The notes beneath the pieces are model-generated. The model was not told the origin of the DNA and did no database searches. It saw only the letters and a list, made by a program, of their open reading frames with translations. Shown here piece after piece: positions 31,068-50,835 of a DNA stretch of 64,000 bases (positions are counted from its first letter, which is position 1; each line of letters opens with the position of its first letter). A program made the translations under genes and the position numbers. This DNA comes from a virus. Lineage: Duplodnaviria > Heunggongvirae > Uroviricota > Caudoviricetes. The stretch lies in IMG/VR virus record IMGVR_UViG_2681813318_000003, one strand, 5' to 3'.

Positions 31068-31523
31068 TCAACGGGGAGTAATAAAGCGTTCAGAGCCTAA
31101 TCGCTCTAATTCAACGATGGCCATCTTTGACGCCTGAACGATCATGTCTCGGCGATGCGAAAAGGCGGCGACAGCATGTTTGTATATGTCTGCGATGTGC
31201 CGTGCTTCATCCAACTTCTGCCGTTTAGACAGATACTGTGGGTTTGTTTTAACCTTAGCGTCCAGTACAGATTCGTTGAACTTAATGCCGTTCATACTCA
31301 AGTTCTTACGCTCTGTGTCGTATAGCTTTGCTTCAACAGCTTCAAGGTTAAGTTTTGCTTCTGCGACACTTCTTTCTGCATGGGCGAGTTTTGAGCCATA
31401 TTCCATCAACAGGCGGGGTTGTCTACGCCAGACTTCTTCCAGATTGTCTCGGTCAAACTCGAGATCAGACATTATTTTCTCGTAAATATCGGCGATCATG
31501 CACATTTCCTTATCACTTATCAT
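31068..31523 (-). CDS. hypothetical protein
   Basis: 151-aa helical protein between the polymerase and the SSB-like gene. Confidence 0.5.
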   Translation of the reverse strand: MISDKEMCMIADIYEKIMSDLEFDRDNLEEVWRRQPRLLMEYGSKLAHAERSVAEAKLNLEAVEAKLYDTERKNLSMNGIKFNESVLDAKVKTNPQYLSKRQKLDEARHIADIYKHAVAAFSHRRDMIVQASKMAIVELERLGSERFITPR

Positions 31524-31626
31524 TTTGTATTGATTATATCATTGTAATGATGAGGCAATGAGCTTGAAGATAGGGGGGGGTGAGGGGATAAGGGAAAACA
31601 TGGCCTTTATGGCCATGTTTATTGGA

Positions 31627-34600
31627 TCACGTCTTAATAGTTTCTGCTACGTCGGCTAATATCGCTTCTAGTCGTTCTCCCTCTTCAGGTCTGAAGTAAA
31701 GAATGTTGGGGTTAAACCCGTAAAAGACAGTAACGTCAAGGTCTGGAAGATACTCCTTCCTGCCGACCAAATCGGATGGCTTGTTTTTGTTGTTAAACAA
31801 TGCCGTTGCCCGGCTGCCACACGTCAGCACATAGGTCGGACGCACCAGATTGATCTCTTCACGTATAAAGTCGGTGAACTGGCCGATCTCGTCTTTGGTG
31901 TAGTCTTTTTCTTTGTCTTTAACCTTCTTGCAAACGCCTGTGACATAGAGATCGCCCATTCGTAAATCTCCAGCCGTCAATAGCTTGGCCTTAAAGTCGT
32001 CGTATCCGTTCTCCATAAAGTAACCGGTTCGAGCATCATTGCCGTTCGCATTGTCCAGAATGATCATGATTTTCGGCTTAATACCAATGCTGGGGCGGAT
32101 TAGTTCATCACCTAAGCCCATTTCAGCCGCCATCCGCGTCATGAGTACGTTAATTTCAGCCGAACGTTTGGGGTTCATCTCAAACGGACGTGAGGCTTTA
32201 ACTGCGTCTATGACAAGATTTCCCATCAATTCAGCCTGGTCGCGTAGGCGCTCTGGAGCAGTTGCTGGCAGACTACCTGGCTCGATGGATGCAAACGCCC
32301 CTACTTTTTGCAGCGATTCGCGCACTCGACTATTACAGGCACGTTTCTCGACAGCTTCTTCGAATTGCGCCAGTGACTCGAATTTGCCGCCAACTTTTTC
32401 TCGCGCTCTCATGATGGCTTGGCAGCCATTCTCAGAACACCCCTTCACAGCAGAGAATGGCGCATACAGCACCTGGCTGCCATCTTCAAGCGTGCGGATC
32501 TCGATTCGGTTAGATGACACGTTAACGTCTGGTGGCAATACGCGAATGCCATAGGTCAGCGCATCTTTAACCAGCCCCTGGTGTTTATCTTCGCCAAGAA
32601 TAGTGAGAGCAGCAGCGAAAAACTCTGCGGGATAATGAGTTTTCAACCACATAGATTGATAACTGATTAAGGAGTAAGCAACAGAGTGTGATTTGTTGAA
32701 CTGGTAGGCACCATTTTTTTCGAATGCGGTCCAGATCTCCTTCGCTTTCATCTCTGATAGCCCTGGATGTGACGCTGTAACGCGTACTGCGTTTATAGGT
32801 AGTTTTGCGCCGTGCTCAAGTGCCTCTTCGACAGTTTTCAGAGTTCCGTCTTCGCATTTAAAATGTTCCGCACGGTGAATGCGCTGTGTAGTGCCATCTT
32901 CCAGCTCAACGTCTATCCAGCCAGCTTGAGCCTGAACGATGAACTTCTCGCCCATGCTCTTCATTTTTTCCATGTTCTTCTTACCGATTGCGGAACGCAC
33001 AGCGTCAGCTTCAGCCATTGTGAAGCCGGCAAGCAATCGAGTCGCGTTCATCGTCTGTTCCTGATAGAGAATCACGCCATTTGTTTCCGCGGTAAGTTCA
33101 TCAAGAACGGGGTGTAATGATTCCGGCGTCATAAAGCCTTTGGCGACAGAAACATAGTCATCCAACATGCCTGATTGAATTGGCCCTGGCCGGAAGAGCG
33201 CAGTCGTAGCGACGACCGTTTTAAAGCTCATTGGCTCAATTCCACCACCTAAATCTTTAAGCAGCTTGCGCATTGGGCCTGATTCAAGCTGGAAAACACC
33301 TTGAGTATACCCAGCAGCAAAACCATCCAGCACCTTGCGATCTTCAAGAGAAATGGCATCAAGATTGATATCTTCACCTGTGTTCTCTTTTATGTAGCGT
33401 TTTGCACTATCGAGCAAATCGAGAGTTGCCAGGCCAAGCACGTCCAGCTTAATTAGGCCCATAGCCTCGCAGTAACGCTTGTCAAATGCGATACAACGCG
33501 CGTCACCACGGCGCTCAACCGGTGTACGTTCTGTCAGAGGAACACCTGCTACGATCATCCCTGCCGCATGTCTACCAAAGCCACGCATAAGGCTTTGTAA
33601 CTTGCAGGCTGCATTGAATGCATCAGGATATTTTGTTGCGTATTTGTCGAGACTTGCCAGTTGTTCGCGCAGCTCTTCCAATGGAAGGCTATCATCCTCG
33701 ACGTTCTTCAGTTCTTTTGATACCGCCATATCTGCGGACTCCACACCATAAATACGAGCGGTATCACGTAGTGCAGAGGCTGCGCCCAGGTAGGTGAAGT
33801 TCGGAATGCCTGCAACGTAATCTTCGCCGTAGCGTTCATTCAGATACTCGATCACTTCATGGCGACGTGCCTGGCTGAAGTCCAAATCCGCATCCGGCAA
33901 GTCGAGACGCTCAGGGTTGATGAAACGTTCAAACAGAAGACCGTGACGGATTGGGTCGACGTTGGTTATGCCTATGCACCATGCCACCAGAGATCCAGCG
34001 GAGGAACCACGACCAGGCCCGACAGGAATGCCAGTTTCACGGCTGTGATTCATCAGATCGCGTACCATCAGGAAGTAACCACAAAATCCCAGGCGAGTCA
34101 GCGTGTCCATTTCGTACTTTAGCCGCTCAACATAAACCCTGTTCTCAGAAGCAGGTGGTGTGTAGCCAAACTCTTTTGTGGTAAGACGTTTACGCAGCCC
34201 TGCAACAGCCAGTTTCATAAGCGTTGCAGGCTCGTCGTCTGCCATCTTTGGCAGTGCTGGCGGCAATTCATGCCAGCGCCATGTGCAGGCATCGATAATG
34301 GTATCCTGCGTTGTTGAGGCCATTGCAGCTGTTACCGGCACATCCATGCGAACGGAGAAGGCTTTAAGCGCCTCAAGGAGATGGCGGCGACCATTGACGG
34401 CGTTATCTCGCTGGTGGGGGATACGCAGACGATGCGGCTGGTCGATTTTGATGTTGTTCGTAACCATGTGCGCAATGTCTTTAATGTCTGCATCGTCGAT
34501 CGATTCGTAATAAGCGGGATAGAACGCCACTGGCTCTATTTTCAATGCGCTGGCGACTTTCATCGCCCGGACGTTAATCTGGTCGTAGAATGGGGTAGGG

Positions 34601-35145
34601 TGCGGATAAACCACACTATAGAAGTTGTCTTTTCCACCCGCTGTAATCAGTGTGCTTATGATTTTTGCAAAATCGTTGCGTTGGAACACGCTACCGATGT
34701 CGGAAGTAAGCAGGATGATGTTGCCTTTGGCATATGTAGAAACCAACTGTTCGAGCGAGAGACGCGGTACAAAGTAGAACTGTTCTCGTGTGTTGGCCGC
34801 CGTCATTAGTTCGCAGATGTCGCGATATCCTTTCTCATTTTTAATTAGAGCGGTAAACGAGTAGTTACGTCCTCGCTCTAATGATTCCATACATCCCTTA
34901 GATTCTTTAGCAAGTTTAGCCCGGTGCTCGTATGTGGGATCATCAACGATATTTAGTTTCACACCACAAATAACCGCCATGTCGTCACCAGCGGCACGTT
35001 GTAGTGGAATAACACTCGCAATATTCATGCTATCTGCTGAAATTACAGCGGTGTAGCCAGCTTCTCTGGCAATCTTCACCGCGTTTTCTGCTTTTAAAGC
35101 CGACTCCCCAAGTGAGAAGTCAGTTCGAACCATCAGTGCCTTCAT
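31627..35145 (-). CDS. dnaE: DNA polymerase III alpha subunit-like (DnaE family)
   Basis: 1172 aa with the DnaE signature GFCGYFLMV...GPGRGSSAGSLVAWCIGIT...LLFERFINPER. Confidence 0.9.
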   Translation of the reverse strand: MKALMVRTDFSLGESALKAENAVKIAREAGYTAVISADSMNIASVIPLQRAAGDDMAVICGVKLNIVDDPTYEHRAKLAKESKGCMESLERGRNYSFTALIKNEKGYRDICELMTAANTREQFYFVPRLSLEQLVSTYAKGNIILLTSDIGSVFQRNDFAKIISTLITAGGKDNFYSVVYPHPTPFYDQINVRAMKVASALKIEPVAFYPAYYESIDDADIKDIAHMVTNNIKIDQPHRLRIPHQRDNAVNGRRHLLEALKAFSVRMDVPVTAAMASTTQDTIIDACTWRWHELPPALPKMADDEPATLMKLAVAGLRKRLTTKEFGYTPPASENRVYVERLKYEMDTLTRLGFCGYFLMVRDLMNHSRETGIPVGPGRGSSAGSLVAWCIGITNVDPIRHGLLFERFINPERLDLPDADLDFSQARRHEVIEYLNERYGEDYVAGIPNFTYLGAASALRDTARIYGVESADMAVSKELKNVEDDSLPLEELREQLASLDKYATKYPDAFNAACKLQSLMRGFGRHAAGMIVAGVPLTERTPVERRGDARCIAFDKRYCEAMGLIKLDVLGLATLDLLDSAKRYIKENTGEDINLDAISLEDRKVLDGFAAGYTQGVFQLESGPMRKLLKDLGGGIEPMSFKTVVATTALFRPGPIQSGMLDDYVSVAKGFMTPESLHPVLDELTAETNGVILYQEQTMNATRLLAGFTMAEADAVRSAIGKKNMEKMKSMGEKFIVQAQAGWIDVELEDGTTQRIHRAEHFKCEDGTLKTVEEALEHGAKLPINAVRVTASHPGLSEMKAKEIWTAFEKNGAYQFNKSHSVAYSLISYQSMWLKTHYPAEFFAAALTILGEDKHQGLVKDALTYGIRVLPPDVNVSSNRIEIRTLEDGSQVLYAPFSAVKGCSENGCQAIMRAREKVGGKFESLAQFEEAVEKRACNSRVRESLQKVGAFASIEPGSLPATAPERLRDQAELMGNLVIDAVKASRPFEMNPKRSAEINVLMTRMAAEMGLGDELIRPSIGIKPKIMIILDNANGNDARTGYFMENGYDDFKAKLLTAGDLRMGDLYVTGVCKKVKDKEKDYTKDEIGQFTDFIREEINLVRPTYVLTCGSRATALFNNKNKPSDLVGRKEYLPDLDVTVFYGFNPNILYFRPEEGERLEAILADVAETIKT

Positions 35146-35330
35146 GTGTTTTTACCTTTCTGGTTTTTTTTGATTTTGTCATTTGGGAAGCCTACGAACT
35201 TCCCATGCATCGAAATCGCAACTTCTTTTGCTGATTGGTGACAATCAGGCTTGTCTGGACACACCAGACAAGCCTTACCAGTTTCAGAAGCAGCGATAAG
35301 AGAGCCGAAACATCCTTTACGCACGATCAA
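35142..35330 (-). CDS. small Cys-rich protein
   Basis: 62 aa with C..C and CP..PDC; translationally coupled between the CobS-like gene and dnaE. Confidence 0.35.
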   Translation of the reverse strand: MIVRKGCFGSLIAASETGKACLVCPDKPDCHQSAKEVAISMHGKFVGFPNDKIKKNQKGKNT

Positions 35331-36562
35331 CCAAATATTTTTTGAACAACTTCACGAGCCGCTTGTGCAGAAGCTGAAGGGAGTTTGTTAATGAAAGAAC
35401 GCTCAATACCTGTCACAAAGTCGCCTCGCATCATTCCAATCTTGGCCGACAACAAAAGTTCACGAGGGCCAATTGGCTGACTGATAAGGTGTTCTTCGTA
35501 TCCATCGCGAACGATACCGGCAAACTTAACCATCTTTTCTGCGTATTCATCCACGATACCGGCATTTATCAACATGTTGATCTCTGCCTCTTTGCTCATG
35601 TATTTCACATTCGAAACGATGCCAAAACGCGAAAAGTTCGCGGCGTTCTGGATGTTTGTACCCTGGTACAAGCCGGTTTCATCACCAGATCCGTTCGTGT
35701 TGCCAGTGCCAATGAAAGCAAACCGTTCATGCGGAGTAATGCGACGCCATTCTGGAGTTGCCTCTTTGATGACCAACGCTTCACCTTCCAGCACTGGCTG
35801 ATACACGCCAAGAATTTGTGGAAACGCAAAGTCGTATTCATCCGCGAGGTAAACCCAGCCATGCTTCATTGCGAGCGCAAGCAAGCCAGGTTCGAAATAC
35901 GTAGAGCCATCACGCGCCAGAATTTGCCCCGTAACATGTGCCTCTTCCATTGATGCTGTATGTTGGGCACGGATCAACGGACGATTGAGCAAAGCACATA
36001 GCTGTGTAGGCAATGACGATTTGCCTGTTCCTGCATGACCCCACAAATAGCCAGGTATGCCAAGTTCAAGCATCATGAAAATATCTTTGATCAGTTCGAA
36101 GTCGCCATATACGTAGCCTTTCTTCACTTCGGGAACGAACTCTGGATACGGCGTATTGACGTTGACGCTAACCATGAGCGGCGTCCCACGTTTTGTTCCG
36201 AGTTCTTCCACCGTTACGTTTAGCAGTTCGTGAGCTGCGACCAGATCTGTCTTGTACTCAACTGTGCCTGTGTAGCCAGGGCTACTGGTCAAGCCAGAAG
36301 ATTTGGCCATTTCGCTTTTTTGCTCGGCACGTTTAGCTTGAATTGCATCAAGTGCCTTTTTCGATAGCGTTGGTTCATCTGGAAACTGCGTTGTGTACAT
36401 TTTCAGTACGGTGTCAGGATCGGCATCTTTTACTGACTCAGGAATGCCCTCGCAATTACCATTGGCTACATGGGACTTAAAATAGTGAAATGATTTGCCG
36501 CACCACTTGCAAACAAGGTAATCAGAAGGATTTTTTTCATTTTGCAGTGCAGTAGTCGTCAT
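35327..36562 (-). CDS. CobS/MoxR-like AAA+ ATPase with N-terminal zinc ribbon
   Basis: CKWCGK...C N-terminus, Walker A GHAGTGKSS, Walker B VYLADEYD. Confidence 0.75.
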   Translation of the reverse strand: MTTTALQNEKNPSDYLVCKWCGKSFHYFKSHVANGNCEGIPESVKDADPDTVLKMYTTQFPDEPTLSKKALDAIQAKRAEQKSEMAKSSGLTSSPGYTGTVEYKTDLVAAHELLNVTVEELGTKRGTPLMVSVNVNTPYPEFVPEVKKGYVYGDFELIKDIFMMLELGIPGYLWGHAGTGKSSLPTQLCALLNRPLIRAQHTASMEEAHVTGQILARDGSTYFEPGLLALAMKHGWVYLADEYDFAFPQILGVYQPVLEGEALVIKEATPEWRRITPHERFAFIGTGNTNGSGDETGLYQGTNIQNAANFSRFGIVSNVKYMSKEAEINMLINAGIVDEYAEKMVKFAGIVRDGYEEHLISQPIGPRELLLSAKIGMMRGDFVTGIERSFINKLPSASAQAAREVVQKIFG

Positions 36563-36657
36563 GCGTTTTTCCTTTGTTCTCTAATGAGCGTTCAACTTCT
36601 TATATAAATATATCATCATCTATCGTAAGTGGTTACTTATCGTTAAGGCTGTTTTGT

Positions 36658-38766
36658 TCACTTTAAAATGATACGAGATAGTTCAGTAACTACAGATGAA
36701 CCAAGACTATCAACGCTCGTTACCAGGGCATGATTTGAGTAAAATCTCTCCGGTGCGTCAGTCATGATGCCAATTGCCATCAAATCAATATCAGTCTGCG
36801 TTTCAATTTGCTTCGCAACTGAACGCAAATGAGCGTCAAAACCTCTCCCAACAGCCCACGGCGCGCCATCACTCAGAACAAGCATGATCTTCCTGTCCTC
36901 CAAGCGACCGGAAAATAACGATGCAAGGCTGGCTATGCTTTCACCATCCACGTTATTAAGAAGTGGGAATGTGTAGCCTACGCACCCCATACGTGAGCGA
37001 ACTTCGCGAGAATTTACCTTTTCATTCCAATTTTTGATGATAGGTAGCATTAAAGATTCAAAGCGAGAGAACTCATACTTGACAGCCTTAAGTTCTCCTG
37101 CCGCCATATGACTACCAAATGTAGTGAAGCCGGTGATAATGTTGGGAACATTTATTCGATCAAGGGCATCTGCGATGGTATATGCACTTGCAAGAGCCAA
37201 TTGTATCGTTATACCACTCATTGAACCTGATAAATCAATCACTTGTTGAACACAGGCGTTAACGGCTTTAGATTCTTCTTTTTTACGAAACACGCGATCA
37301 TCATTCATTGCTAATCTGTAGATACTAGAACCATGAATGCGCCCCCGACGCTGGCCCGGTATAAACTGAACTCTGTTTCTGCTTGCTATTGCTCGCTCCA
37401 GGTCTTTTGCCAGCGTCGACGAAACACCTGACGAAAGATGCTTTTCAATATATTTGTCGAAGAGCTGGTTGCCTTCAGGAACGATGCGATAGCGGCTGAT
37501 TGGATATCCTCCTAAATCAATATCGGAGAATGTTTTAATAAGCCGTTTGATATGGGCTTCTGCCTGATCAATCGAGCCGATGAAGTCGTATGAGCGATTG
37601 TATGGCCTGTATTCGCTTTTCGAGCTTTCTGTTAACTCGCTTTTAATCGTTTCGGATAGAGCATCTTCTGTCATGCCTCCGACTTCATCTTCTATGCTAT
37701 CCAGCTCCTCTAAAGCCTCTTCCAGACTCATTTTTGACGGAGTTGGAATATCTGAAGAGCCGTCTTCTGTCGTTTTTCTTTTTTCGTGGTCAGCGATAAA
37801 TGATTCTGACACCGCGTTATCAGAAGCATCAGAATCTGATACCTCTTTATCATTTTCTGTATCATCGAATATTGTTTCTGATGATTCAGAATTATCTGAA
37901 TCATCACTGTCGTTATTATCATGTTTGTGCTTACTGTGTGATTCTGATTTGATAGATTTGTGATTATCTAACGCTGAGGGTGTCTCATGATCTTCGTTGT
38001 CTTCATTGTTTTCTCCAGAGGCATCCGTCTGGTCAGCGTCTGAAGGATCGGAAGTTTTTCCCGGAGCTGACTCCTTACCTTTGCTTTCACTTTCAGTGTC
38101 TTTGAGGATCTTAGCTATGGTCGCAGCCACCTTTACACAATCCTCGGTGCAAGACATGTTACGCACGGCCACATCGATACCATGTTCTTTTAATAATGAA
38201 ATTGGTTTCTCAATGACAGGCCAATATTCATCCATGAAATCTACGAACGGTGCTTGGCCATCCCAGGCTCTTACAACCGGACAGAGAAAGAAGTTTAGAA
38301 AAAGCGCGCGCTGATCTTTGCCACAATAAGCAATAGCCTCTGAAGCCTTTGGTTTAAAGACTTTTTCGATTATAAGGCGCTGAGTTGCCATCAGATTACG
38401 TCTTGTTCCGTTAAAGACCTGACCCATTTTTCGCTCGATGAACACGTCTTCTAAGGCATTCCATAGCGACCAGGAAGGAACGCGTCCTTTTTCTCTCATT
38501 TTGTTGGACACACGAATATCGGTAAACAAAATGTGAGCAACCTCATGATCGAGAAATCCGCGCACAGCATTCATCAATGCCGGTGTTGCGTTATCCGGGA
38601 TTGATGGGATGTTTACGAGAATTGGCTCTCCATCATCGTTATAGCGTACATAAGCGTCGTCCCCTCGTTCTGCAACAGGGATGTTTTTACCTGAAAGGAG
38701 AGCGACTACTCGTTTTACACTGTCACGGAAGTCCTGAACCTCTTTGATAGAACGTTTTTTAGACAT
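36658..38766 (-). CDS. von Willebrand factor A domain protein (CobT-like)
   Basis: C-terminal VWA with MIDAS DLSGSMSG; long Asp/Ser/Glu-rich central linker; immediately upstream of the CobS-like gene. Confidence 0.75.
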   Translation of the reverse strand: MSKKRSIKEVQDFRDSVKRVVALLSGKNIPVAERGDDAYVRYNDDGEPILVNIPSIPDNATPALMNAVRGFLDHEVAHILFTDIRVSNKMREKGRVPSWSLWNALEDVFIERKMGQVFNGTRRNLMATQRLIIEKVFKPKASEAIAYCGKDQRALFLNFFLCPVVRAWDGQAPFVDFMDEYWPVIEKPISLLKEHGIDVAVRNMSCTEDCVKVAATIAKILKDTESESKGKESAPGKTSDPSDADQTDASGENNEDNEDHETPSALDNHKSIKSESHSKHKHDNNDSDDSDNSESSETIFDDTENDKEVSDSDASDNAVSESFIADHEKRKTTEDGSSDIPTPSKMSLEEALEELDSIEDEVGGMTEDALSETIKSELTESSKSEYRPYNRSYDFIGSIDQAEAHIKRLIKTFSDIDLGGYPISRYRIVPEGNQLFDKYIEKHLSSGVSSTLAKDLERAIASRNRVQFIPGQRRGRIHGSSIYRLAMNDDRVFRKKEESKAVNACVQQVIDLSGSMSGITIQLALASAYTIADALDRINVPNIITGFTTFGSHMAAGELKAVKYEFSRFESLMLPIIKNWNEKVNSREVRSRMGCVGYTFPLLNNVDGESIASLASLFSGRLEDRKIMLVLSDGAPWAVGRGFDAHLRSVAKQIETQTDIDLMAIGIMTDAPERFYSNHALVTSVDSLGSSVVTELSRIILK

Positions 38767-49457: not shown

Positions 49458-49689
49458 GTTGGCTTCCCTTTATTTATATTTATTGCAGGTATTAGTTAAT
49501 CAAAACACGAGCAGTGCCACAATAATTAAATGGCGTACTATTTCTTATGGTTATTAGTTTCCCGGTAACTTTACCGACCATAAACTAAATCAACAAAGCT
49601 GACATATTAACTAAATTTAAGTACCCTTTTCGCACACTTGACGCTTGCCGCGTCTAAACTGTTCATCCTATATCAACAGAACAAAAAAT

Positions 49690-50835
49690 ATGAAATACAT
49701 AAAATCTTCATCGTTGCTGGCATTAACTTTGCTTTTTAGCTCTGGATTCGTTAACGCAGACAATAAACAAACGCTGATAGAAGCCGCTAACGCAGGGAAT
49801 ACCGCAGCACAAAGTGAGTTAGGGACAAATTATTTTGATGGTATCAATGGTTTTGATAAGGATGTAGTTGAGGCCAAGAAGTGGATTGATCTAGCTGCAG
49901 AAAAGGGAGATAAAGTAGCATATTATGCACTTGGAGTTATGTACACATTTGGCGAGGGTGTAGATAAAGACCTAAATAAAGCTGTTGAGTACTACAAACT
50001 TGCGGGGGACGCTCGTGAAGGTAGAGCCTACAACAATCTTGGTGCTATTTATCAAAAGGGGATGCTTGGTAAAGTAGATCATGCACTCGCCATTAAATAC
50101 TTCAAACTAGCCTCTGATGCCGGGTATGTTAAAGCAACTTCAGTTCTTGGGGCGTATTACCAATATGGTGAAGGCGTTCAAAAGAATTATAAAAAGGCTT
50201 TTGCTTATTACAAAAAAGCGGCGGATCAAGGTAGTTCAGATGGTATGTTCGCATTAGGCACCTTATACGATGATGGTTTAGGTGTTAAACGAAACGATGC
50301 CGAAGCAATTAAGTGGTATAAAAAAGCTGCTGAACTCGGAAACGTCGATGCCATGACAAATCTTGGCATTATGTATGAGAATGGCGAGGGTGTTAAAAAG
50401 GATTATAAAAAAGCAGCCGATTTTTATCAGGCCGCTTGCGATAAAGGAGATAAAAGCGGCTGTAAATACATTGCAGAACTGAAAGAAAGCGGCAAATATC
50501 GAGCGCCGGCTTCCAAAGCCAAAACAAAATCCGCCACCCAGCGACTTATTGCTAAATCCATTGATAAGGGCGTTAACGCTACATTTACCTGGCAGGGTGA
50601 TGATGCTACCTTCACCGCTAATGATGGCAAAGTTGACTGCACCTTCCTGAAGGATTTTTCAGAGAAAGGAGGCAATCTGGCTACCTCGTTTGTTTGCACC
50701 GATAACGTTCAAATCATCCTGAAGCAATTCAGAGATACCAAAAATGCCTACCTCGCGGTAATGACTGACAACTTCAATACTGAAGTTAAATCATTTTCGG
50801 TCAATGTGTATGTGACTAATACTGGTTCAAACTAA
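49690..50835 (+). CDS. secreted Sel1-like repeat protein
   Basis: Signal peptide MKYIKSSSLLALTLLFSSGFVNA followed by ~7 Sel1-type repeats (A..W..KAA..G........LG.MY..G.GV..D); start moved to ATG 49690. Confidence 0.7.
   Translation: MKYIKSSSLLALTLLFSSGFVNADNKQTLIEAANAGNTAAQSELGTNYFDGINGFDKDVVEAKKWIDLAAEKGDKVAYYALGVMYTFGEGVDKDLNKAVEYYKLAGDAREGRAYNNLGAIYQKGMLGKVDHALAIKYFKLASDAGYVKATSVLGAYYQYGEGVQKNYKKAFAYYKKAADQGSSDGMFALGTLYDDGLGVKRNDAEAIKWYKKAAELGNVDAMTNLGIMYENGEGVKKDYKKAADFYQAACDKGDKSGCKYIAELKESGKYRAPASKAKTKSATQRLIAKSIDKGVNATFTWQGDDATFTANDGKVDCTFLKDFSEKGGNLATSFVCTDNVQIILKQFRDTKNAYLAVMTDNFNTEVKSFSVNVYVTNTGSN

Follow-up and report, generated by a model that had tools for sequence, protein, structure and literature searches.

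What does a gene pair resembling the CobS and CobT subunits of the aerobic cobaltochelatase do in the replication operon of a tailed phage? The question arises at positions 35142-38766 of a 64,000-nt stretch of DNA (IMG/VR record IMGVR_UViG_2681813318_000003, Caudoviricetes; the whole stretch is referred to here as the window), a region that shares 98-99% identity with Escherichia phages CMS-2020a, Cyrano, and PhiR41_1, and 74% with Salmonella phage SSU5. Because of this identity, the window is assigned by sequence to an SSU5-type Escherichia coli phage-plasmid, an element of about 108 kb whose relative PhiR41_1 has K-12 MG1655 as its host on record. Four minus-strand genes make up the block of interest, in the order 702-aa CobT-like protein, 411-aa CobS-like protein, an open reading frame (ORF) of ~60 aa with four cysteines, and dnaE. 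A preliminary description of the locus had placed a CobT-like VWA protein, a CobS-like AAA+ ATPase, a small ORF, and dnaE here, with which the ORFs and the Pfam and PDB matches agree. It also held that the function of such phage pairs is not established, and we indeed found only two proposals in the literature, both hypothetical: that the pair hijacks host CobN and boosts cobalamin (PMC8651126), and that a MoxR-vWA pair serves as a virion-assembly chaperone and peptidase (PMC7824862). The gene pair itself has long been deposited and annotated, and the phage architecture combining MoxR, vWA, and peptidase domains has already been described. What is added here is a contrast: almost every member of the phage family has a zincin site that both of the cellular CobT genes examined have lost. 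We hold with moderate confidence that the pair is a motor and its adaptor, homologous to the aerobic CobS-CobT module, and that it acts as a peptidase-bearing remodelling machine rather than in cobalt insertion.

The CobT-like adaptor (36658..38766, minus strand) is built of an N-terminal zincin-like domain, an acidic linker, and a C-terminal VWA domain with a MIDAS (metal ion-dependent adhesion site), as read from the ORF and its Pfam, phrog, and PDB matches. The Pfam CobT family matches residues 9-294 (E 1.8e-27) and the CobT_C VWA family residues 492-701 (E 7e-82), while phrog_1576 is matched at E 2e-299. The nearest solved structure in a PDB search is Brucella CobT (E 1e-12 to 2e-15), which shares the M48C-like N domain, the disordered acidic linker, the MIDAS-bearing VWA domain, and a shaft segment with which the phage protein aligns (10.64898/2026.07.21.739949). 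Relatives are abundant: a homologue search covering 1.84 billion cluster representatives returned 518 clusters at 50% identity (E<1e-30), and the 90% identity cluster contains 3307 sequences; orthologues in SSU5-type phage-plasmids are 684-790 aa long, with linkers of varying length.

The N domain (aa 1-222; 38101..38766, minus strand) has a predicted M48-like gluzincin fold. Translation and family conservation identify HEVAH (H74, E75, and H78; 38533..38547, minus strand) as an HExxH zincin motif, and conservation together with an AlphaFold2 model points to EDVFIE (E106, D107, and E111; 38434..38451, minus strand), on the next helix, as the candidate source of the third metal ligand. We aligned the query with 146 full-length sequences among the best 150 (147 sequences in total, with identities of 50% or less). 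H74 and E75 are each kept in 145 of the 147, H78 in 144, E106 and E111 each in 146, and D107 in 145, making these the most conserved positions of the N domain at 98-99% each; by this measure the HExxH...ED...E signature is under strong purifying selection. The AlphaFold2 model of residues 1-222 (predicted local distance difference test score, pLDDT, of 92.3) starts with a helix and a three-stranded sheet, after which come the HExxH helix (62-81) and the Glu-bearing helix (96-117), so that H74, E75, and H78 lie on the first of the latter two helices and E106 and E111 on the second, the gluzincin arrangement. The N domain is therewith a predicted zinc peptidase; the preliminary description of the VWA protein did not include the HExxH motif.

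A Foldseek search against viral models recovers the N domain from many sipho- and podoviruses, from tailed viruses of haloarchaea, and from actinophages, in proteins of CobT-like or VWFA type. The corresponding search against the PDB gave no significant match, with Wss1 and selecase appearing only at E 3.9-9, values at which we do not claim a link to DNA-protein-crosslink proteases; a single-sequence PDB search with the N domain yielded only HLA and SOD matches, which we consider spurious. A profile of 26 N-domain sequences reached Brucella CobT_N weakly (E 0.37), with the HExxH region outside the alignment, and Pfam Peptidase_M48 was touched by only one of the 26 relatives (E 0.008). A stand-alone homologue of the N domain alone (query residues 1-187, 33% identity) is encoded at 31364-31855 of AB571791.1, a 127-kb Salmonella Typhimurium record.

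The cellular comparison comprises two CobT genes, taken from a Brucellaceae and a Methylorubrum extorquens genome, each adjoining a CobS gene of 327 or 328 aa. Their N domains were read from the upstream frame of genomic loci L006 3316-5380 and L007 3421-5329; a protein search seeded with a Brucella CobT fragment had returned only shortened CobT entries without the N domain, and the choice of these two loci is thus biased. In a profile-profile alignment, the cellular sequence DSMALR sits opposite the phage sequence DHEVAH, and the equivalents of E106 and E111 are kept. According to this alignment, the two chelatase adaptors have lost the His-Glu-His triad that the phage family keeps. In both cellular loci, the reading frame also shifts where the acidic linker begins, and the product is called ~180 residues short, which is probably a matter of assembly error and selection bias.

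The linker (aa 223-385; 37612..38100, minus strand) was delimited by composition and charge. At 163 aa, of which D+E+S account for 50% and hydrophobic residues for 12%, and with its net charge at -37, it bears out the Asp/Ser/Glu-rich linker of more than 150 aa that had been reported, and the median net charge in the family is -47. It changes faster than its surroundings, with a nonsynonymous substitution rate (dN) of 0.26-0.52 against 0.16-0.25 for the flanking domains. An acidic linker is a general CobT trait that is family-wide among the phage homologues; that of Brucella CobT is disordered and shorter, at ~90 aa (10.64898/2026.07.21.739949). A weak PADLOC match to DrmE (E 0.0014) covers much of this low-complexity linker and was rejected as compositional.

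Alignment to Brucella CobT defines the remainder of the adaptor (aa 386-702; 36661..37611, minus strand) as a pre-VWA segment and the VWA domain, with residues 439-697 aligning to Brucella residues 346-616. Residues ~463-503 align with the Brucella CobT 'shaft', Q373-R413, which enters the CobS ring (10.64898/2026.07.21.739949), and by analogy they may act as a shaft in the phage adaptor. The MIDAS motif DLSGS (37222..37236, minus strand; alignment and translation) supplies D511, S513, and S515, which, together with D633, are unchanged across nine diverse phage homologues, and every full-length representative has a D.S.S match at the position corresponding to the MIDAS.

As previously described, the ATPase gene (35327..36562, minus strand) lies directly downstream of that for the 702-aa VWA protein, across a 95-nt spacer (36563..36657, minus strand) in which, from reading the sequence, AAAGGAAAA precedes the cobS-like ATG. 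Its 411-aa product is assigned to the CobS-like MoxR class by matches to Pfam AAA_5 (E 2e-15), phrog_249 (E 2e-106), and the PDB, where Brucella CobS is best (E 1.8e-25, residues 142-411), followed by Midasin and CbbQ; Brucella melitensis CobSTN (PDB 9ujv/9uka/21vt) is thus the best sequence match among solved structures for both phage proteins. Walker A (GHAGTGKS; 36017..36040, minus strand; alignment and translation), Walker B D241-E242, sensor-1 N288, the arginine finger R312, and sensor-2 R367 are invariant across two cellular and six phage proteins, and they coincide with the catalytic residues named for Brucella CobS, namely Walker A and B, sensor-1 N186, arginine finger R210, and sensor-2 R271 (10.64898/2026.07.21.739949). 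With these motifs in place, the 411-aa protein is an AAA+ ATPase of the MoxR class and competent for catalysis.

The phage ATPase differs from cellular CobS in ~100 extra N-terminal residues, which comprise a knuckle, a helix, and a low-complexity stretch. The preliminary description had seen a zinc ribbon here, an assignment that we do not retain because there is a single CxxC; alignment and translation instead give a CCHH motif, CKWCGKSFHYFKSH (36470..36511, minus strand), whose spacing, C18-x2-C21-x4-H26-x4-H31, is that of a zinc knuckle. The knuckle is kept in Pseudomonas phage ZY21 and Stenotrophomonas phage BUCTxx99, degenerate in Rhizobium phage RHph_N1_10, and absent from cyanophage P-SSM2, ICP2-like phage JSF27, and cellular CobS. 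In other phage lineages, the N-terminal extensions of the ATPase are different and longer, and such variety is as expected of a targeting domain.

The closest solved relatives of both proteins are genuine cobaltochelatase subunits, and the domain architecture, the MIDAS, and the ATPase motifs are identical in kind; the CobS catalytic motifs are all in place, and so is the CobT architecture of N domain, acidic linker, and VWA domain with MIDAS. These likenesses speak for the usual annotation, under which the pair is a set of auxiliary metabolic genes that replaces or supplements host CobS-CobT, drives host CobN, and raises cobalamin, an idea already in the literature (PMC8651126 and the ICP2 paper). 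The family-level scores point the other way. NCBIfam equivalogs TIGR01650 and TIGR01651 are missed by a wide distance, with 70 bits for the CobT-like protein against a cut-off of 759.05 and 84.9 bits for the CobS-like protein against 558.55, or about one-tenth and one-seventh of the respective thresholds. The chelatase also has a CobN partner, whereas we found no CobN among the 29 window ORFs scanned; DnaE and a tail fibre are the only ORFs of more than 900 aa in the window, leaving none of CobN size unassigned, and the 126 features annotated in the nearest relative, Cyrano, include no cob or cbi gene. Moreover, the ribonucleotide reductase of the element is the class I enzyme NrdAB, and class I ribonucleotide reductase needs no B12. 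Chelation has no use for the conserved HExxH, which both cellular CobT proteins read have lost, and the CobS helix that contacts CobT_N is absent from the phage ATPase.

Host physiology bears on this from both sides. CobN is present in certain hosts of homologous phages, among them Rhizobium, Pseudomonas, and cyanobacteria, which counts in favour of a metabolic role. Against it, neither E. coli nor Vibrio cholerae is known to have CobN or to synthesize corrins de novo, and the route in Salmonella is that of CbiK. Taken with the sub-threshold scores, the lack of a CobN or cob gene in what was scanned, the class I reductase, and the retained zincin motif, this agrees with the earlier view that the pair does not act in cobalt chelation. 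The pair is very unlikely to make vitamin B12, and we regard the auxiliary metabolic explanation as highly improbable.

The genomic setting offers a clue to what the pair may do instead. In the window, the pair lies in a long minus-strand module of replication and nucleotide-metabolism genes. This module encodes a DnaB-like helicase, a primase, an ATP-dependent ligase, four tRNAs, and an ORF positioned as the Cyrano glutaredoxin gene; an integrase, the CobT-like and CobS-like proteins, the small ORF, and DnaE; a UvsY-like protein, a gp32-type single-stranded DNA-binding protein (SSB), a 5'-3' exonuclease, RecA, and a plasmid RepA; and SbcCD, class I NrdA and NrdB, and thymidylate synthase. DnaE itself (DNA polymerase III alpha with a PHP domain; 31627..35145, minus strand; Pfam PHP, DNA_pol3_alpha, finger, and HHH_6) is the last gene of the four-gene block. 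A scan of this block for promoters and terminators gave signal counts at or below the shuffled expectation.

Conservation of this order was followed in 80 related viral contigs, SSU5-like and 78-100% identical, which are informative on synteny and not on diversity. All 78 contigs that carry the four genes have them in the order CobT-like, CobS-like, four-Cys ORF, DnaE. The orthologues in the SSU5, pHCM2, pMT1, and pKpn phage-plasmids, of which there are thousands in public data, occupy the same operon position at 60-99% identity, vary only in linker length, and are annotated as 'porphyrin biosynthesis protein' or 'cobaltochelatase CobT-related protein'. The same order, within the same module running from helicase, primase, and ligase to SSB, exonuclease, and RecA, recurs at 30-40% protein identity in Pseudomonas phage ZY21, Rhizobium phage RHph_N1_10, and Stenotrophomonas phage BUCTxx99. 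Elsewhere, the neighbours change. In cyanophage P-SSM2, the pair sits between gp46/47 and gp45/44, T4-type replication and recombination genes, with the adaptor annotated as 'peptidase'; in ICP2-like Vibrio phage JSF27, it lies upstream of a helicase and DNA polymerase I; and in Roseobacter phage CRP-810 and Gordonia phages, it is found in reversed gene order with no annotated polymerase nearby. From these contexts without DnaE, it follows that the pair associates with replication or early modules in general and not with DnaE. The tight linkage to the polymerase that had been emphasized in the preliminary description is therefore kept across one large phage supergroup, while in other lineages the pair sits with different replication machinery or has no annotated polymerase nearby, and the replication-associated or host-takeover role drawn from it stands as an inference.

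A possible VWA-polymerase fusion in Xanthomonas phage JGB6 (L088 7327-10079) was rejected, as the record is split into many short coding-sequence fragments. The VWA-like match there lies under coding sequences labelled 'DNA polymerase III subunit alpha' and 'PHP domain-containing protein', and these labels are unreliable.

The same setting bears on the published suggestion that such pairs serve in virion assembly. Iyer et al. (2021) proposed an assembly role for jumbo phages, and proteins p618 and p892 of Acidianus two-tailed virus (ATV) act in tail development (PMC7824862). In this scheme, the pair would be a chaperone and processing protease that folds or assembles, and trims, tail or head proteins, and both the archaeal-virus precedent and the matching architecture, a MoxR ATPase with a vWA domain fused to an N-terminal metallopeptidase, speak for it. 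In the phage-plasmid, however, the pair sits inside the replication operon, with which it is linked translationally, whereas the genes for morphogenesis and lysis (in Cyrano, those for structural proteins and lysis) are grouped apart on the opposite strand. The positions of the pair in P-SSM2, between gp46/47 and gp45/44, and in ICP2-like phage, upstream of helicase and polymerase, likewise fit this poorly, and we consider an assembly role unlikely.

We hypothesize instead that the motor and adaptor work as follows. By homology to Brucella CobS, the ATPase would form a hexameric ring, which would grip the segment of the adaptor just ahead of the VWA domain. The MIDAS site would capture an acidic residue of a client protein, and ATP hydrolysis, passed on through the adaptor, would pull on or remodel the client so bound. 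The zincin domain, tethered by the 163-aa acidic linker, could then cut the captured client. The client would most likely be a phage or host protein handled in genome replication or host takeover, because several phage lineages unrelated to one another have the pair in a replication or early module, and in this element it lies outside the morphogenesis module.

Several observations weigh against a remodelling protease of this kind. The His ligands of HExxH are gone in the Pseudomonas Nickievirus lineage, represented by phage ZY21 (SEISK; L002 6847-8931), in Stenotrophomonas phage BUCTxx99 (REVST; L089 7992-9977), and in three metagenomic representatives; the ZY21 and BUCTxx99 proteins retain the MIDAS and the rest of the protein. 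Because of these losses, proteolysis cannot be essential to the core function everywhere. The phage ATPase ends where residue 315 of the 328-aa CobS aligns, 13 residues short, and the hydrophobic helix that docks CobT_N is gone with them. In Brucella CobS, this is the C-terminal helix alpha10, which docks CobT_N through A322, A323, I325, and V326 (10.64898/2026.07.21.739949), and since it is absent, the interface between ATPase and adaptor may differ from that of Brucella. A gene order shared within one phage supergroup may reflect descent rather than function. Finally, our literature search turned up neither experiments with a phage homologue nor a named client.

The small ORF between cobS and dnaE (35142..35330, minus strand) has a bearing on a further explanation. 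Its 60-62-aa product, defined by phrog_6337 (E 1e-36), alignment, and the ratio of nonsynonymous to synonymous rates (dN/dS), carries four cysteines spaced C7-x13-C21-x2-C24-x5-C30. G6, C7, G9, C21, C24, and C30 are invariant, with cysteines counted over 10 sequences, dN/dS against six relatives is 0.12-0.26, and homologues occur on plasmids of Salmonella, Yersinia pestis, Klebsiella, Citrobacter, and Cronobacter, all of which marks the ORF, at the sequence level, as a real gene. Its start either overlaps the cobS-like stop or is the GTG at 35324, two bases further; the latter is most likely, yielding MRKGCFG like the homologues. Its stop overlaps the dnaE start (ATGA), an overlap indicative of translational coupling. 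Thus the 62-aa Cys-rich ORF said to couple the pair to dnaE stands as a gene with four cysteines and an ATGA overlap, though its probable start is the GTG.

This gene travels with dnaE and not with the pair: longer homologues lie directly upstream of dnaE in three other phage groups, the four-Cys gene was seen only alongside DnaE, and in the remaining lineages it is not beside the CobS/CobT-like pair. The spacing C-xn-C-x2-C-x5-C is one that WhiB-like (Wbl) and AddB-type [4Fe-4S] sites display; UniRef labels the 75%-identical homologue P0393 a '4Fe-4S Wbl-type domain-containing protein', and a profile of the family finds Streptomyces WhiB as its top, though weak, PDB match (E 0.14). Pfam gave no match to the small ORF even at E 10, and its AlphaFold2 model (pLDDT 51) is unusable. 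To our knowledge, Wbl-like four-Cys proteins have so far been described only in Actinobacteria and their phages. The ORF is without annotation in Cyrano. Between the cobS-like and four-Cys genes, the Rhizobium phage has a gene annotated as a sigma-70-family factor (L003 10209-10844), and in the same place the Stenotrophomonas phage has an unannotated ORF (L089 11190-11897) that looks sigma-factor-like by eye only; the four-Cys gene of BUCTxx99 (L089 11899-12495) carries the annotation 'recombinase'.

With such a neighbour, the pair might be a maturation factor for a metal centre, opening a client metalloenzyme to receive its cofactor, with the peptidase-like domain as a docking module only. 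The candidate clients would be DnaE with its PHP domain, the four-Cys protein with its putative Fe-S or Zn site, and NrdB. MoxR-VWA pairs offer precedents for metal insertion, as in NorQ-NorD (FeB into NorB), CoxD-CoxE, and CobST; the pair adjoins, and is translationally coupled with, the four-Cys protein and the PHP-containing DnaE; the element encodes NrdAB; and the loss of His ligands in two lineages would make proteolysis dispensable there. However, the pair also occurs in phages with no DnaE or four-Cys gene nearby, an HExxH...E conserved at 98-99% is unexpected for a plain docking module, and host DnaE and NrdB are not known to need such factors for maturation. A metal-centre role therefore seems to us rather doubtful.

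It could also be argued that the pair is an inherited passenger, carried along with the replication module and of no important role in this phage-plasmid, as no phenotype has been reported and the zincin motif has decayed in some lineages. Against this, both genes are intact in all 80 related contigs retrieved, conservation extends to other phage groups down to ~30% identity, the 90% identity cluster is as large as given above, and dN/dS of the CobS-like gene is 0.057 against the relative L037, with synonymous rates (dS) saturated for more distant relatives in both the CobS-like and the CobT-like gene. We give this explanation very little credence.

Returning to the motor and adaptor, known systems place the pair more precisely. 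An AAA_5/MoxR-type ATPase beside a VWA protein with an intact MIDAS is the hallmark of MoxR-VWA pairs, and NorQ-NorD, CbbQ-CbbO, CoxD-CoxE, RavA-ViaA, ATV p618-p892, and Midasin/Rea1 all combine an AAA_5-type ring with a MIDAS adaptor to remodel one dedicated client. The clients of these other systems are known or suspected, and we know of no peptidase domain on any of their adaptors. The cellular CobST module differs from the phage pair in gene order (cobS then cobT at the two loci, against cobT then cobS), in DSMALR at the site of HExxH, in a linker of ~90 aa in Brucella against 163 aa, and in the two ends of the ATPase, where the phage protein has the knuckle-bearing extension and lacks the C-terminal helix. 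M48/M56 gluzincins of the Ste24, HtpX, and BlaR1 type are membrane-embedded, whereas the phage N domain is soluble. A further likeness is to the pair of jumbo and T4-like phages, in which an N-terminal HExxH domain is likewise fused to vWA beside a MoxR ATPase (PMC7824862). The pair of P-SSM2, PSSM2_154 and PSSM2_150 (cobS and 'peptidase', both cyanophage core genes), shares the HExxH, the acidic linker, the MIDAS VWA domain, the CobS-like partner, and the replication and recombination setting, but differs in its 19-27% identity, in three ORFs between the genes, in an ATPase without knuckle, and in T4-type neighbours rather than DnaE. The MoxR and vWA-metallopeptidase pair thus extends from jumbo phages to a phage-plasmid of ~108 kb.

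Some features around the block differ between the window and Cyrano or interrupt the module. Between the uvsY-like gene and dnaE, Cyrano has a hicA/hicB toxin-antitoxin pair (L001 6801-7649) where the window has only ~100 nt (31524..31626). The tRNA cluster of the window (44199..44852, minus strand) comprises Ser-TGA, Thr-TGT, Tyr-GTA, and Asn-GTT, while the Cyrano annotation has three, without tRNA-Tyr. Two plus-strand ORFs break the minus-strand module, encoding a 445-aa protein (42682..44019) and a 396-aa Sel1-repeat protein (49645..50835), and these may be cargo genes. In Cyrano, the genes of the pair itself, CYRAN_47 and CYRAN_48 (L001 12185-15624), are labelled 'cobalamin synthetase' for the AAA+ ATPase and 'dimethylbenzimidazole phosphoribosyltransferase' for the VWA protein, a mix-up with the unrelated CobS and CobT of Salmonella nomenclature.

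A wider reading, which we offer only tentatively and think on the whole improbable, is that viral CobS/CobT pairs constitute a widespread ATP-driven, MIDAS-targeted zinc-protease machine, of which cellular CobST would be a derivative without the catalytic His. In the supergroup of SSU5, Nickievirus, and Rhizobium phages, this machine would work with the replisome (DnaE and the Wbl-like four-Cys protein), processing or removing one specific protein, of host or phage origin, as phage DNA replication begins.

More generally, these observations bear on how viral metabolism is read from genomes. Virome studies routinely class viral cobS and cobT among the auxiliary metabolic genes for cobalamin, and in T4-like cyanophages cobS belongs to the core genes. 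The E. coli element provides a clean system for the function of viral 'cobST', its host being a textbook case of a bacterium without CobN or the corrin pathway, and for that reason a phenotype in E. coli K-12 cannot come from cobalt chelation. If the reading as a protease machine is true, many labels would need correcting, among them 'porphyrin biosynthesis', 'cobalamin synthetase', and 'DMB phosphoribosyltransferase'.

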